A DNA stretch of 64,000 nucleotides from Alphaproteobacteria bacterium (GTDB lineage: Bacteria; Pseudomonadota; Alphaproteobacteria; MPNO01), in the NCBI GenBank assembly GCA_964291675.2, contig OZ219866.1, positions 2,880,001-2,944,000 on the forward strand, in the 5' to 3' direction. Below the pieces are notes generated by a model, which saw nothing but the letters and a program-made list of their open reading frames with translations, did not search any database and was not told the origin of the DNA. Both the position numbers and the translations under genes were made by a program. Of the stretch, positions 52,834 to 59,359 are shown in pieces (within the stretch, counting starts at the first letter, position 1; the number at the start of each line of letters is the position of its first letter).

Positions 52834-54327
52834 TCACAGGCGGTTCACCGTCTCCCGCAGCTCGTGCTTGAGGGTCTTGCCCATCGCGTTCCTGGGCAGC
52901 GCGTCGACGAACAGGACGTCCTTGGGGTGCTTGAAGCGGGCGAGCCTGCCCTCGAAGCGGGCGAGGAAGTCCGCCGGAGGGATCGCCGCGCCCGCCGCCG
53001 GGACGACCACGGCGACCGGCACCTCGCCCCAGCGCGAATCCGCCCGGCCGACCACCGCGACGTCCTCCACATCGTCCATGCGGTGGACGAGCTGCTCGAT
53101 CTCGGCCGGGTAGATGTTCTCGCCGCCCGAGATCACGATGTCCTTCTTGCGGTCGTTGACGAACACGTCGCCGTCGGCATCGCGGTAGGCGACATCGCCG
53201 GTATGGAACCAGCCGCCCTTGATGGCGCGGCGGGTCTCTTCCCGGTTGTTCCAGTATTCGAGAAGCACGTTGCCGCCGCGGATCAGGATCTCCCCCGACT
53301 CCCCGTCCGGCAGCGGATTGCCGGCCTCGTCGGCGATCGCCATCTCGCAGTGCAACCCGCATTTCCCGGTCGAGCGCGGCTTCAGGCGGCAATCCCCCGG
53401 CTTCTGGTAGATCGCGACCGGCGCGGTCTCGGTCAGGCCATAGGTCTGGCACACCGGGATGCCGCGCGCATGGACCGCCTCGATCAGGTGCAGCGGAACG
53501 ATGGACGAACCGGTGGTCAGCAGGCGCAGGCTGGAGAGGTCCGCCTCCGCCCATCCGGGGAGGTCGATCACCGCCTGGATGGTCGCCGGCACCAGCACCG
53601 TCTGGGTCGGGCGGTCGTCCACGATCGCGCGCAGCGTCGCCGCGGCGTCGAAGCGGCGGTGCAGGATCACCGTGCCTCCGACATAGAAGGCGGGCGAGGT
53701 CAGGATGTTGAGCCCGCCGACATGGAACATCGGCAGCACCGTCAGCACCCGGTCGGTATCGGTGAGCCCGGCATAGTGGATGCAGTGATGCGCGTTGACC
53801 TGGATCGCCTCCTGGGCGAGCACCGCGCCCTTGGGACGGCCCGTGGTGCCCGAGGTGTAGACCAGCAGGCAGGGCGTCTCGCGCCCCGCCCCCGGGTTCC
53901 TGTCGTCGCCGCTCGCCGTCTCCGCGTCCCGGGCTATCCCGTCCGCTGGAACCACCGCCGCCGGGCAATCGCCGGCCGCGGCGCGCGCGAGGTCGAGATG
54001 ATCGGCGTCCGCCACCAGCACGCGCGGCGCCGAATCGCCAAGGATGTAGGCGAGCTCCGGCGCCACCAGGCGCCAGTTGAGCGGCGAGAACATCGCGCCG
54101 AGTCGCGCGCAGGCGAAGAACAGCGCCAGCATCGCCGGGCTGTTGAAGCCGAGGAAGGCGACCCGGTCGCCGGGCCGGACCCCGTGCACGCCCTTCAGCG
54201 CCCGCGCGCAGCCGCTTATGGTCTCGGCAAAGCGGGCGTAATCGATGTCCTCGCCCTCGAAGCGGATCGCGGTCTTCGACGGGGCGAACGCGGCGTTCTT
54301 CTCGACCCAGGACGACAGATCGCTCAT
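52834..54327 (-). CDS. Acyl-CoA ligase (AMP-binding)
   Basis: YTSGTTGRPKG, YGLTE, FHTGD and ISGGENIYPAEIE. Confidence 0.93.
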   Translation of the reverse strand: MSDLSSWVEKNAAFAPSKTAIRFEGEDIDYARFAETISGCARALKGVHGVRPGDRVAFLGFNSPAMLALFFACARLGAMFSPLNWRLVAPELAYILGDSAPRVLVADADHLDLARAAAGDCPAAVVPADGIARDAETASGDDRNPGAGRETPCLLVYTSGTTGRPKGAVLAQEAIQVNAHHCIHYAGLTDTDRVLTVLPMFHVGGLNILTSPAFYVGGTVILHRRFDAAATLRAIVDDRPTQTVLVPATIQAVIDLPGWAEADLSSLRLLTTGSSIVPLHLIEAVHARGIPVCQTYGLTETAPVAIYQKPGDCRLKPRSTGKCGLHCEMAIADEAGNPLPDGESGEILIRGGNVLLEYWNNREETRRAIKGGWFHTGDVAYRDADGDVFVNDRKKDIVISGGENIYPAEIEQLVHRMDDVEDVAVVGRADSRWGEVPVAVVVPAAGAAIPPADFLARFEGRLARFKHPKDVLFVDALPRNAMGKTLKHELRETVNRL

Positions 54328-55580
54328 TCGTCCTCCTCGCCGCGCTCGTACAGCGCCTCGCGGCCGAGCTTGTCGATGCAGAGCTCGGCCGTCCAGGGCA
54401 GCATCAGCGAGCCGCAGCGGCTGTCGCGGTAGAGCCGCTCCAGCGGCAGGCTTTTCAGCATCGACTGCCCGCCGCAGGTGCGGATCGCCTTCTGGCAGAG
54501 GTCGTTGGCGGTCTCCATCACCGTGTACTGGGCGCAGTAGGCGCGCAGAACGGACGCCTTGGACGGGTTGGCGCGCGCCTCGCCGAGCATCTGGAACCAC
54601 AGCGCCTTGGCCTGCTCCAGCGCGACCAGCATCTCGGCCACGGCGTGCTGCTTGGTCGGGTACATGCGCCGCTTGACCGGCGGCATCCCCGGCACCTCGC
54701 CGCGCAAATAGCGCACCGTGAAGTCGTACGCCGCCTGGGCGATCCCCATATAGCTCGGGGTGAGCGTCGTGAACATGTGCGGCCAGCGGGTCGCGGCCTC
54801 GAAATAGATCCCCTTGGGCATCAGCGCCGCGTCGTCCGGCACGAACACGTTCTCGAACAGGAGATTGCGCGAGACCGTCCCGCGCATTCCCAACGGGTCC
54901 CAGTCGCCGACCACGCTCACCCCCTCGGCCTCGGCGGGGATGGCGAAATACATCGTGTCGCGGCGGCTCAGATTCTCCCTCTTCTCGGTGCACAGCACGC
55001 CGTAATAGTCGGCCGAGCCCGCGAGCGAGGCGAAGATCTTCTTGCCGTTGATCACCCAGCCGCCGTCCACCCGGTCGGCCAGCGTGCCGAACGGGCGGAA
55101 CCCCGCCGCCGCCGCGCCGCCTTCGGAGAACGGCTGGGCGTAGATCGCGCCCTTCTCGACGATCCGGGCGTAGTGCAGCGCGCGCCGCCGGTTGTGCTCG
55201 CGCCTTTGGCTGCGGGTCATCGGCAGGTCGTCGGCGAGCGCGCCGGTCCACAGGCACGAGCTCACATGCATGTTGAAGGTGAGCGCCGTCGACCCGCAGT
55301 AGCGCCCGATCTCGGCCGCCATCAGCGAATAGGCCTTGAGGTCGGCGCCGTGCCCGCCGTGCTTCTTCGGCACGCACACCGCGAGCAGGCCGGATTTGTG
55401 GAGGTCGCGGTAATTCGCCATCGGGAAGATCGCGTCGCGGTCCCACTTCTCGGCCCGTCCCGCGAACCTGTCCTCGCCGAGGCGTCTTGCCTCGGCGCAG
55501 AGCGCGGCCGCTTCGTCGGTCAGGCCGAAATAGTCCGGGTCGAACATCGGCGCGTCGCGCCCGCCGGTGCCGGTCGCCAT
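54324..55580 (-). CDS. Acyl-CoA dehydrogenase family flavoprotein
   Basis: QPFSEG, NGKKIFAS, WDPLGMRGT and LERLYRD. Confidence 0.9.
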   Translation of the reverse strand: MATGTGGRDAPMFDPDYFGLTDEAAALCAEARRLGEDRFAGRAEKWDRDAIFPMANYRDLHKSGLLAVCVPKKHGGHGADLKAYSLMAAEIGRYCGSTALTFNMHVSSCLWTGALADDLPMTRSQRREHNRRRALHYARIVEKGAIYAQPFSEGGAAAAGFRPFGTLADRVDGGWVINGKKIFASLAGSADYYGVLCTEKRENLSRRDTMYFAIPAEAEGVSVVGDWDPLGMRGTVSRNLLFENVFVPDDAALMPKGIYFEAATRWPHMFTTLTPSYMGIAQAAYDFTVRYLRGEVPGMPPVKRRMYPTKQHAVAEMLVALEQAKALWFQMLGEARANPSKASVLRAYCAQYTVMETANDLCQKAIRTCGGQSMLKSLPLERLYRDSRCGSLMLPWTAELCIDKLGREALYERGEEDE

Positions 55581-55630
55581 GTCTCACGCCCTCCGCTTAC
55601 AGAGAAAATTGCCGCCCCGATGGATCGCGG

Positions 55631-56677
55631 TCATGCCCCGCCGTCGACCAGGCGGCCGGATTCGACCACCGGCACCCCGTCGAGGCTGACCGTGCAGTTC
55701 CGCATCGGCAGGTCGAAATGCCCGAGCGTGTGACGATCGGCGAACTCGTTGGCGCCGGTCGAGTACAGGAAGTTGCCGGCAAACGCCCGGATCTCGGTGC
55801 CGTTGAAGTCGCGCCGGTCGTACATGGTGAGCGCCTCGTAGCGCGCCGCCTCGTTCAGCCCCCAGCCGACATGCGAGGTGGCGTAGGCCTCGCGGTCGCC
55901 CCAGGCGGCCCAGTAGCGCCGGAACAGCTCGGCGTCGGTGCCCTCGCCCTCGACGGCGGTGACGTAGTCGTCCTCGATGGTGAGCCCGACCGGCGCCTCG
56001 AGATAGCGCTTGAAGGTCAGGTTGACGTCGCCGGTATCGAGCACCAGCCGGCCCTGCACCGAGCCCGCGGCGGGGAAGGCGACCACGATCCCGCCCGGCC
56101 AGTGGGCGACGGTCTTGGGACGGTCGCAATAGCCCCACACCCCGGCGCTCGGCGCCCCGTCGAGGGCGACCGTCAGGTCCGAACCGGCGTTCGAGGTCAC
56201 GCGCATCTGCTTCGCCGCGCGGACCCGCTTGACCGCCGCCTTGACGCGGTCGGTGAGCGCCGGGTCGGGCACCAGGCGCTCCAGCGCGTCGGGATGCTCG
56301 TTGCTGACCATCAGCAGCCGCGCGCCGTCGCCGATGATGTCGGGCAGCTCGGGCGCGTGCAGCATCCCTTCCACCGTGAGATCGACCACGAGGGAGCTCG
56401 CCGCCAGCGCCTTGACCGCCGGGCCGAGCCCCTGCAAGGCGGGCGATGCGCCGGTGGAACGCACCGGCACCGGCGCGGTCTGCGGCGGCGAGACGACGGT
56501 GACGTGGAACGGGCGGGCGCCGCGCCTGAGCAGCGCGAGCTCGGCGAGCTGCACGTTGAGCCGCCGCGACTGGGTCTCCGAGAGGATCGCGACTTCCTCG
56601 CCCTTCCCGACCCTGCACAGGCCGAAGACGGTATCGAACGCCGCGATCCAGCGTTCCTCGATTCGGTCGGTGAACAA
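55631..56677 (-). CDS. Peptidase M29-fold protein, NicX (2,5-dihydroxypyridine 5,6-dioxygenase)-like
   Basis: AHWPGG, SHVGWGLN, FAGNFLYSTGAN and GHFDLPMR (candidate His/His/Asp Fe ligands); TTG start. Confidence 0.75.
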   Translation of the reverse strand: MFTDRIEERWIAAFDTVFGLCRVGKGEEVAILSETQSRRLNVQLAELALLRRGARPFHVTVVSPPQTAPVPVRSTGASPALQGLGPAVKALAASSLVVDLTVEGMLHAPELPDIIGDGARLLMVSNEHPDALERLVPDPALTDRVKAAVKRVRAAKQMRVTSNAGSDLTVALDGAPSAGVWGYCDRPKTVAHWPGGIVVAFPAAGSVQGRLVLDTGDVNLTFKRYLEAPVGLTIEDDYVTAVEGEGTDAELFRRYWAAWGDREAYATSHVGWGLNEAARYEALTMYDRRDFNGTEIRAFAGNFLYSTGANEFADRHTLGHFDLPMRNCTVSLDGVPVVESGRLVDGGA

Positions 56678-56763
56678 TTGCGGTCTCCCCTAACCCTCGC
56701 CCCGCTGTTGTAGCATCCCCGGGGCGGCAATAAAGTCCCGGCGACAGAGGGGGAGAGCCTGCG

Positions 56764-58398
56764 ATGAGCCGACGCCTGACGGTCCACGATCCGCGCGGCA
56801 CGCCGCCCGGGGTCGCCGGAGAGCGGCTTGCGCCGCGGCTCCGGAGCCTCGACGGCAAGGTGGTCTATCTGGTCGATTGCCTGTTCGACAATTCCGACAG
56901 GTTCATGGGCGAGCTGCTCGACTGGTTCGGCGGCAACCTGCCCTCGGTCGATGCCAGGATCGTCAAGCCGCGCGAGAGCTGGGTCGACGATCCCGATATG
57001 CGCAAGCGGATCGAGCACGACGGCGACGGGGCGATCCTCGGGGTCGGGCTGTGAAGCACCTGCAGCCCGACGGTCGTCGGGCTCGCGCTCGACCTCGAAC
57101 GCGCCGGGGTACCCGCCGTCGCGGTCCACACCGAGGTGTTCTCGCAGCTCGTGAAATCCACGGCGCTGGCCAACGGCATGCCGACGGCGCGCCAGGCCTT
57201 CGTCCCCCAGCCGGTCGTCGACCGCACGGCGGCGCAGCTCCGCTCCTATATCGAGGGCGCGGACCCGGTCTCCGGCCGCCCCTTCCTGCGCGAGGTGATC
57301 GAAGGGCTGACCCGCCCGCTCGACGACGCCGATCTGAGCGGGCTCTCCTTCGAACGCGCCACGCCGCGCCTGCTGGAGCCCGACGGCGAGGACAACCTGC
57401 GCGCCTTGTTCGAGGAGAACCGCTGGACCGACCATTTGCCGATCGTCCTGCCGACCGAGGAGCGGGTCGAGGCGATGCTGCGCGGCACCGGCCGCAGCCC
57501 CGACGAGGTCGTGGGCACGCTCAGGCCGACCGCCTATCGCGAGGCCTGGGAATTCACCGTCGAGAAGGTCGCGGTCAACGCCGTCATGGCGGGCGCAAGG
57601 CCCGAATACCTGCCGGTCATCCTCGCGCTGGCTGCGACCGGGCAGACCGCGCGCTCGTCGAGCACCAACTCGTTTGCCGTCATCGGGGTGGTCAACGGGC
57701 CGATCCGCACGGAAATCGGCATGAATGACGGCATCGGCGCGATGGGTCCCTACAACCACGCCAACGCGACGATCGGGCGGGCCTACAACCTCGCCTCGAT
57801 CAACCTGCAAGGCGGCTCGGTCCCGGGCGACACCTATATGGGCTCGGTCGGCAACTGGTACAACTATTCCTCCACCTTCGCCGAGGCCGAGCAGCGCAGC
57901 CCGTGGCAGCCGCTCCACGTCCAGAAGGGATTTGACGCCGAAGAGAGCGCCGCGAGCGTGTTCTTCGGCGCGTGGTACACCCATGCCGGGTACGGACCGC
58001 GCGAGACATGGCAGGAGAATTTCCGGCGCTCGCTCGCCGGCTGCGAGCACCATTTCCCGCCGCTCTTCGTGATGGACCCGATCTGCGCCCGCGGCCTGGT
58101 CGAGCTCGGCTTCGACACCAAGGAGAAGATGATCGACTGGCTCGCCGACAACGCCCGCCTGCCGGCGCGCGAGTACTGGGACAACCAGTGGGTCAAGACC
58201 CTGATCCACCCGCTCGCGGTGGCCGGCGTCGAGCCCTTCGCGACCCGGCTGCGCGCCGCGCCCGAGGAGCCGATCCGCATCTTCGAGCCGTCCGACATCA
58301 ACATCGTCGTCGCCGGCGGCGAGACCCAGGGCGCGTGGAAGATGATCGCCGGGCGCTACAGCCAAGGCGGCACGGTGTCGATCGACGCCTGGCGCTGA
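56764..58398 (+). CDS. UGSC-family selenoprotein (Sec at codon 97, TGA 57052-57054), 544 aa
   Basis: ORFs 56764-57054 and 57136-58398 are in frame; readthrough gives GVGL-U-STCSPTVV…LERAGVPAVAVHTEVF; SECIS-like hairpin follows. Confidence 0.85.
57062..57086 (+). promoter_or_regulatory. Bacterial SECIS-like hairpin
   Basis: AGCCCGAC-GGTC-GTCGGGCT perfect 8-bp stem; G-initiated loop 17 nt after the TGA. Confidence 0.75.
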
Positions 58399-58723: not shown

Positions 58724-59359
58724 ATGGCCGTAATCTTCGAAAACGTGCTGCCGCCCAAGACCGGGCTCGCGCTCGAAATCGAAACCGGGCAGCGGCTCCG
58801 CGTGATCGACCTCGAAGGGCAGCAGGTGGTCGACATGGCGTTGTTCAACCGCGACAACCCGCGCGAGAAGCTGTCGACCTCGTATTCGCGCACCCGCTAC
58901 ATCCCGGCGCCCGGGGCGCAATACGTGCCGCGCGACTCGTTGAGCGTCGGCGACACGCTGATGTCGACCTCGTGCCGGCCGATGATGACGATCACCGCCG
59001 ACACGCCCACGCCCAAGGGCGTCCATGACGTGCATAACCGGATGTGCAACCGCTACCTCTACGAGAGCCACGGCGTCGGGCCGAGGGACGGCTGCCACGA
59101 GATCATCGCCGGCGTGATGCAGCCCTACGGCATCGGCTACGACGACATCCCGGACACGATGGATCTGTTCATGAACTACCACCACGACTGCAGCCAGAAG
59201 CGGTGGATCATCGATTTTCCGGTTTCGCAGCCGGGCGACTACATCGAGTTCGAGGCGAGGATGGCGCTGCTCGTCGGCCTCTCGAACTGCCCCATGGACG
59301 TGCTCGCGCCGTGCAACGCCTATAACTGCACAAGGGTGAAGGTCGAGATCCGCGACTGA
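58724..59359 (+). CDS. Urea carboxylase-associated family protein (DUF1989)
   Basis: LRVIDLEGQQVVD, HD…C, GC, DLFMN, SQPGDYIEFEA and SNCP. Confidence 0.88.
   Translation: MAVIFENVLPPKTGLALEIETGQRLRVIDLEGQQVVDMALFNRDNPREKLSTSYSRTRYIPAPGAQYVPRDSLSVGDTLMSTSCRPMMTITADTPTPKGVHDVHNRMCNRYLYESHGVGPRDGCHEIIAGVMQPYGIGYDDIPDTMDLFMNYHHDCSQKRWIIDFPVSQPGDYIEFEARMALLVGLSNCPMDVLAPCNAYNCTRVKVEIRD

Follow-up and report, generated by a model that had tools for sequence, protein, structure and literature searches.

An in-frame UGA followed by a SECIS-type hairpin joins two open reading frames into a predicted 544-residue selenoprotein of the UGSC family

The subject of this report is a gene near the 3' end of a 64,000-nucleotide stretch of an alphaproteobacterial genome (Alphaproteobacteria bacterium, MPNO01; assembly GCA_964291675.2, contig OZ219866.1, positions 2,880,001 to 2,944,000 of the forward strand), which we call the window and whose first letter is position 1. 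The list of open reading frames (ORFs; translation table 11) gives two frames here, one of 96 amino acids opening with ATG (56764..57054) and one of 420 amino acids opening with GTG (57136..58398). As an earlier sequence-only reading of this DNA had recognized, the two lie in a common frame, and when TGA is translated as selenocysteine (Sec, U) the interval 56764-58398 yields a single protein of 544 residues, the sole internal TGA (57052-57054) being codon 97. The 27 intervening codons (57055-57135) read STCSPTVVGLALDLERAGVPAVAVHTE, again in agreement with that reading, and the peptide across the UGA is GVGL-U-STCSPTVVGLALDLER, with the redox motif U-S-T-C and the immediate surroundings GVGL-U-STC-SPTVVGLALDLERAGVPAVAVHTE. 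A full-length product would be about 59 kDa, against about 10 kDa for one ended at the TGA. The features of the gene, all on the plus strand, are the following:

56750..56757, +, Shine-Dalgarno-like purine-rich run GGGGAGAG, 6 nucleotides 5' of the ATG at 56764, as read from the sequence
56764..58398, +, predicted selenoprotein gene in full, with 544 codons and the terminal TGA; its full-length orthologues each have exactly one in-frame TGA
56764..57255, +, N-terminal UGSC-family domain, residues 1-164, from Pfam PF24696 and NCBIfam NF041046 scores
57052..57054, +, UGA codon, predicted selenocysteine U97, from the retention of TGA or Cys codons among relatives
57061..57063, +, codon for C100, which is probably the resolving cysteine in U-S-T-C, at least 95% identical among 77 family members
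57064..57083, +, putative hairpin of the selenocysteine insertion sequence (SECIS) type, with an 8-bp stem (57064-57071 with 57076-57083) and the loop GGUC (57072-57075)
57256..58395, +, C-terminal domain of about 380 residues, no Pfam family, with the conserved polar residues D223, T231, N334, R339, E374 and E376
58396..58398, +, terminal TGA, the true stop by translation

The Pfam UGSC model (PF24696) matches residues 7-162 of the joined protein, straight across the UGA, with 82 bits where the cut-off is 25, which bears out the assignment to this family proposed from the letters alone; the further claim that the domain (residues 1-164) is fused to a larger one holds likewise, the remainder being a C-terminal domain of about 380 residues. 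A search of the whole genome returned the present gene, with its one TGA, as the single UGSC match. To follow the Sec position through relatives we used a set of 20 orthologous loci, comprising the window's own and 19 others, and a distant set of 80 loci from a scan of one genome per species. Of 41 genomes drawn from the same genus, family and order, 28 gave a match, and all 23 rows from them that cover the query end to end contain exactly one TGA. In the orthologue set the TGA aligns to codon 97 at every locus (20/20), within GVGL-U-STC(S/C)PTVVG, and in 12 orthologues the 96 residues 5' of it, with stretches such as VHDPRG, LVDCLFDNS and PRESW.DDP, equal the remainder of the protein in conservation.

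The distant loci span the Alpha-, Beta-, Gamma- and Deltaproteobacteria, Acidobacteriota, Chloroflexota, Actinomycetota, Latescibacterota, Methylomirabilota, Verrucomicrobiota, Bacillota, Thermodesulfobacteriota and Binatia. At the Sec column they have TGA in 69 cases, TGC in eight, TGT in two and CTA in one, so that Sec or Cys, the residues expected at codon 97 if the UGA encodes Sec, occupy the column in 79 of the 80 loci, with a lone Leu in L097. Full-length representatives free of stops show CSTC, CPGC or CGSC at the motif, and Cys stands at the Sec column in P0123, P0124, P0128, P0153 and P0212. As the motif takes the forms USTC, USSC, UPGC, UDGC and UGGC in the family, only UxxC is kept, and a distant group lacks even this, having G, M or PSSSTT in its place. 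When 77 rows are placed on a quickly built maximum-likelihood tree, the Cys forms make up one alphaproteobacterial clade of seven and one separate row, and the gene tree is discordant with the phyla.

We then consider the hairpin downstream of the UGA. The sequence-only reading had described a perfect stem with a G-initiated loop, and this is what lies at 57064-57083: AGCCCGAC[GGTC]GTCGGGCT, beginning 9 nucleotides 3' of the UGA, with the first G of the loop at 57072 and 17 nucleotides between that G and the A of the UGA. All 20 nucleotides of the hairpin are identical in the 20 orthologue loci, and within a 120-nucleotide slice of these loci none of six third-codon positions inside the hairpin varies, against 32 of 33 outside it; the corresponding Fisher p of 2e-6 overstates the case because the orthologue genomes are kin and not independent. 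The distant loci were examined in an ungapped 48-nucleotide alignment of the window with the 69 TGA loci (70 sequences). Here the window's eight-pair structure has 69.1% of its cells paired, against 62.3% after shuffling, and a covariation score of 0.278, against a shuffled mean of 0.167 and at most 0.206 in slid controls; none of 500 shuffles reached either value. The compensatory types include CG 22, GC 11 and AU 9 at pair 15-30, GC 44, CG 9 and AU 4 at pair 18-27, and CG 60 and AU 4 at pair 20-25. The key control comes from the Cys forms, whose encoded peptide (CSTCAPAV) is almost unchanged and which yet have lost the hairpin: the inner six pairs average 4.94 at the TGA loci, with all six present in 31 of 69, and 2.30 at the Cys loci, with all six present in none of ten. 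The loop GGTC occurs in 46 of the 69 TGA loci. Judged by its folding stability alone, the hairpin stands out only moderately in such GC-rich DNA, a 39-nucleotide slice folding at -18.8 kcal/mol (z -2.18) with six of 200 shuffles as good, and an Rfam scan of 56900-57300 gave no match.

Based on the invariance, the covariation and the tie to the TGA, the proposal that the hairpin at 57064-57083 is selected as RNA and acts as a bacterial SECIS element is strongly supported. It would recruit SelB carrying Sec-tRNA(Sec), whereupon the ribosome would insert Sec at the UGA at 57052-57054. In its offset of about 9 nucleotides from the UGA and its GGUC apical loop it is like the SECIS element of the Escherichia coli fdhF type, and SelB and tRNA-Sec, with which that system works, are also encoded in the present genome. 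It differs in that its 8-bp stem is perfect, with no bulged U in the upper part. Binding by SelB is putative.

The genome carries the whole machinery that Sec insertion calls for, as a search for selA, selB, selD and tRNA-Sec established:

C2:2837316-2837407, minus strand, tRNA-Sec, 76.7 bits, anticodon TCA by ARAGORN
C2:2838438-2840312, minus strand, selB, 456 bits
C2:2840351-2841709, minus strand, selA, 565 bits
C2:1869115-1870017, selD, 314 bits

Thus, selA, selB and tRNA-Sec form a cluster (C2:2837316-2841709, minus strand) about 95 kb upstream of the selenoprotein gene and outside the window, with selD elsewhere. None of the formate dehydrogenase homologues in this genome contains an in-frame TGA. 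All 41 relatives from the genus, family and order possess selA, and farther afield it was found in all eight TGA-form genomes examined, from several phyla, and in none of five Cys-form genomes, for which completeness is not given.

In light of the Sec machinery, the Sec or Cys at the column and the Pfam UGSC match across the TGA, the single-gene interpretation first drawn from the letters is upheld, and we propose with considerable confidence that the two ORFs are one gene encoding a 544-residue UGSC-family selenoprotein, in which the UGA at 57052-57054 is read as Sec. Several observations weigh against it. Contigs from RNA libraries of relatives 90-95% alike span 56774-57035 and 57175-58269, where DNA carry-over is possible, so that they flank the TGA on both sides, and none of those listed bridges it. 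The score of 56.3 bits on NCBIfam NF041046 misses the equivalog cut-off of 125, while truncated relatives score 29-36 bits on the same model. UxxC is wholly lost in L097 (Leu), P0127, P0136, P0139 and the PSSSTT group, so that the C-terminal domain can persist without a redox-active N-terminal domain. As for the hairpin, its outer two pairs fail to form in 51 and 49 of the 70 sequences and are lineage-specific, the RNAalifold consensus retains the three apical pairs only (-1.26 kcal/mol), one acidobacterial group has a shifted hairpin, and a longer slice of 66 nucleotides folds unremarkably (z -0.63; 55 of 200 shuffles as good).

That there are instead two genes, the TGA at 57052 being the true stop of a 96-residue protein and a separate 420-residue protein starting at GTG 57136, agrees with the table-11 ORF listing and with the databases, which hold the relatives as "hypothetical protein" entries of 420-436 residues or as truncated "UGSC family (seleno)protein" entries; it is nevertheless very improbable, as the UGSC domain crosses the TGA, the stretch of 27 codons in between shows conservation at the protein level, ten of the 80 loci have Cys in place of the stop and hence uninterrupted proteins, the hairpin is tied to the TGA, and no purine run comparable to GGGGAGAG can be read 5' of GTG 57136. 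A lone in-frame stop is also the usual sign of a broken gene, but we set aside as most improbable of all that a recent nonsense mutation has made this a pseudogene or that the TGA was miscalled in sequencing: the same TGA recurs at every orthologue locus (20/20) and at 69 of the 80 distant loci from many phyla, an identical DNA contig in a public run (which may be the source sample) shows 0 differences over the site, and the protein-level conservation of both halves is strong. A scan for promoters and terminators gave nothing beyond what shuffled sequences give.

The database entries themselves illustrate how the gene is lost to annotation. The whole protein as query matches at least 7484 proteins, and the best 120 of these, of 330-438 residues and covering at most 81% of the query, correspond to the part after the TGA, none of them reaching upstream of it. 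The nearest cluster at 90% identity (113 members) includes NCBI "hypothetical protein [Defluviicoccus sp.]" entries of 420-426 residues, and the more distant "UGSC family (seleno)protein" entries have 434-435 residues only. With residues 1-96 as query we retrieved 15 proteins of 299-954 residues, eight of which contain Pyr_redox_2; all four N-part matches that were fetched end in GVGL, indicating that those proteins stop at the TGA. Related database proteins are truncated at this codon, as anticipated of standard gene callers. With the UGA read through, the long fused form, otherwise mis-annotated, regains its active-site residue. The apparent Pyr_redox_2-UGSC fusions of the N-part in the databases have junctions that look like run-on or wrong-frame translations, and we do not count them as true fusions.

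The UGSC-containing protein has been recorded as a selenoprotein without assigned function since 2007-2008 (PMC1976440, PMC2398784), and reviews from 2022 and 2026 still class it as uncharacterized (PMC9312934, PMC13188914). It is among the most abundant selenoproteins of ocean metagenomes, with 255 Sec sequences in the Global Ocean Sampling (GOS) data according to the 2008 account, which proposed a thioredoxin (Trx)-like fold for it (PMC2398784). As described in the relevant parts of the literature, the family (PF24696; NF041046) shares with the present protein the UxxC after a beta-strand and the occurrence of Sec/Cys pairs among homologues (PMC1976440, PMC2398784, PMC13188914). The present motif is U-S-T-C and not U-G-S-C, and the canonical protein stands alone at about 175 residues (e.g., in L041), whereas the present one continues into a C-terminal domain of about 380 residues. 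Zhang and Gladyshev in 2008 named a "UGSC/Unknown_1 fusion" of the GOS selenoproteome in their text and in the legend of Figure S1A (PMC2398784); it is alike in joining a UGSC domain to a conserved domain without known function, and Unknown_1 may or may not be the present C-terminal domain. Fused domains in that selenoproteome are described there as holding, as a rule, conserved Cys (PMC2398784), in contrast to the present C-terminal domain, which has none. Both the family and a UGSC/Unknown_1 fusion having been reported in 2008, the fused form is not new in kind. What we add is the tie between hairpin and TGA, the correlation with selA, a dedicated thioredoxin reductase (TrxR) paralogue, split and alternative fusions, and linkage to sel operons, none of which was found in the nine papers seen to mention UGSC or through a second literature search.

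Residues from about 165 to 544 match no Pfam or NCBIfam family, and a sequence search of the PDB with a 68-sequence profile returned only a designed protein (E 0.43). Across these 68 members Pfam at E<=1 detects UGSC in 51 and nothing else that recurs, and for the present protein it detects no thioredoxin-type domain. The C-terminal domain is nonetheless widespread, with 4181 cluster representatives at E<=1e-3. Among 77 full-length members the positions identical in at least 95% include U/C97, C100, D76, T222, D223, T231 and T242, as well as N311, N334, R339, E374, E376, D541 and W543, and C39 is conserved in only 39%. The domain occurs alone in P0179 and P0253 and fused to an AhpC/TSA domain in P0267. 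A relative has a split system (L041), in which the C-domain, 32% identical to that of the present protein (E 2e-39), belongs to a 480-residue protein whose N-terminal extension bears C-P-T-C. The stop of its gene overlaps (ATGA) the start of a gene for a UGSC selenoprotein of the canonical kind, which has 175 residues and the motif D-U-G-S-C (Pfam, 143 bits). This system, from the same order (L041:7633-9596, minus strand), lies directly downstream of a frame that by eye resembles a TRAP-type permease. Separately, at 57555-57594 many distinct sponge-associated metagenome contigs pile up on the VEKVAVNAVMAGA motif region, which suggests that sponge-associated communities hold many paralogues of the C-domain family.

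We examined the contextual information by clustering the ORFs around the 80 distant loci, 47 of which have full 6-kb flanks. A TrxR-like gene of about 312 residues directly adjoins the selenoprotein gene on the same strand in 28 of the 80 loci (21 of the 47). It is a Pyr_redox_2 protein with an invariant C-A-(S/F)-C-D motif; like TrxB it matches the model TIGR01292 over its full length and has the CxxC-D redox motif, but its scores of 257-312 bits (262.6-311.7 in four proteins tested together) lie under the equivalog cut-off of 343.45, and each of the five genomes tested has it in addition to a housekeeping TrxB that does reach the cut-off. Six of the 28 TrxR-adjacent loci are Cys forms, and selA was undetected in four of those genomes, which argues that the linkage is to the UGSC-fusion protein and not to Sec synthesis.

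The protein can also be compared with the selenoproteins GrdB and PrdB, whose systems draw their electrons from the thioredoxin-reductase system. The only other NCBIfam match of the present protein is GrdF, with residues 78-126 on model positions 331-379 (E 0.084) and Sec97 falling on position 350. We extracted GrdB (..SS-U-ATGTRC..) and PrdB-like (..PV-U-PGC..) genes from genomes that also hold the UGSC-fusion family, and four hhalign profile comparisons gave one local match each with the Sec columns superposed, over 42-65 columns with E 0.0015-0.0055 and a probability of only 7-17%. Around Sec the present protein has in common with GrdB/GrdF and the PrdB-like forms a local pattern of beta-strand, U, Cys, helix, "LE..G(V/I)P" and beta-strand. 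On the other side, PF07355, the GrdB/PrdB family, matches neither the present protein nor any of the 68 members, a partner of the GrdE/PrdA type was not found, and the window's genome has no GRDB gene. A relation of the UGSC domain to GrdB/PrdB is, as far as the sequences go, suggestive. The PrdB-like genes encode about 410 residues with V-U-P-G-C and an in-frame TGA (L135:730-1956, minus strand; L136:712-1953, minus strand; L137:730-1956, plus strand), and come from metagenome-assembled genomes of Dehalococcoidales and Thermodesulfobacteriota that also carry the UGSC-fusion family.

From the TrxR-like neighbours and the other pairings of the C-terminal domain, we tentatively propose that the protein may be a selenol/thiol reductase driven by NAD(P)H, with U97 and C100 as its redox pair and the C-terminal domain holding the substrate. 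Sec97 would attack a substrate bound by the conserved D223, N334, R339, E374 and E376 of that domain, a U97-C100 selenenylsulfide would form, and this would be re-reduced at the expense of NAD(P)H, giving a selenol/thiol <-> selenenylsulfide cycle. In many relatives the re-reduction would fall to the dedicated TrxR-type flavoprotein paralogue; in the window's genome, with only one TrxR homologue, the housekeeping thioredoxin system would presumably perform it. This proposal, too, has its counterevidence: the C-terminal domain belongs to no known family and has no Cys conserved in the 77 members, and the window's genome has no TrxR-like gene adjoining the selenoprotein gene, the one TrxR homologue found with the relatives' neighbour as query being 33% identical and not its counterpart. 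As local synteny is moreover kept only within the genus, the reductase model rests on the relatives.

With the same gene model, the UGSC domain could instead be a general thiol-disulfide or peroxide-type antioxidant module and the C-terminal domain a structural or regulatory part. UxxC motifs are typical of broad redox proteins, a Trx-like fold was suggested in the 2008 paper's treatment of UGSC (PMC2398784), and the C-terminal domain is also found fused to AhpC/TSA. We nevertheless regard this as unlikely, since the C-terminal domain shows high conservation, its polar residues D223, N334, R339, E374 and E376 being invariant, is repeatedly paired with different redox modules, and has solute-transport genes among its neighbours (ABC ATPases in 14, SBP_bac_5 in six and TctC in four of the 80 loci).

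A role in the assimilation or trafficking of selenium, for example by reducing or cleaving a selenium compound to feed SelD, would likewise leave the gene model as it is. In three loci (L050, L055 and L075) the selenoprotein gene stands first in a same-strand series followed by selD, the TrxR-like gene, selA and selB; selD, selA and selB clusters neighbour the gene in four, four and five of the 80 loci, respectively; and in one family of the same order (G027:C10, G023:C10, G030:C3 and G033:C1) the orthologous gene lies about 5 kb from selA. Selenoprotein genes, however, often adjoin sel genes merely as clients; most of the 80 loci have no sel genes nearby, and the TrxR-like neighbour is kept beside Cys forms where selA was not found (L069, L070, L074 and L081). 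We therefore hold this possibility to be rather less likely again than an antioxidant module.

Returning to the reductase, and with more reserve than we attach to the reaction itself, we speculate that the UGSC-fusion protein and its dedicated TrxR paralogue might together constitute an unrecognized selenoenzyme system, driven by NAD(P)H and widespread in bacteria that are mostly aerobic, which would apply GrdB/PrdB-like Sec chemistry to an imported small molecule or peptide and would be the principal client of the Sec machinery in some lineages, the last because the gene heads the selD, selA, selB operon there. The TrxR paralogue, the sel linkage and the C-terminal domain in its split form and its other fusions provide testable partners, which make the function of UGSC experimentally approachable.

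Finally, the neighbours in the window show synteny that is limited to the genus (the 348-residue gene, the acyl-CoA genes and the DUF1989 gene described here), and for this reason we did not use them in predicting function. Upstream, 52834-56677 is occupied by divergent genes on the minus strand: one for a 348-residue protein (55631-56677) without a Pfam or NCBIfam match, one for an acyl-CoA dehydrogenase (54324-55580) and one for an acyl-CoA ligase (about 52834-54330). The 917-residue ORF listed at 52834..55587 is a run-on, as its AMP-binding match covers only residues 429-904. A gene resembling DUF1989/urea-amidolyase-associated proteins (58724-59359, plus strand) directly adjoins the selenoprotein gene downstream. 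Among the relatives, a 191-residue neighbour in eight of the distant loci looks like a secreted protein and has no redox motif.

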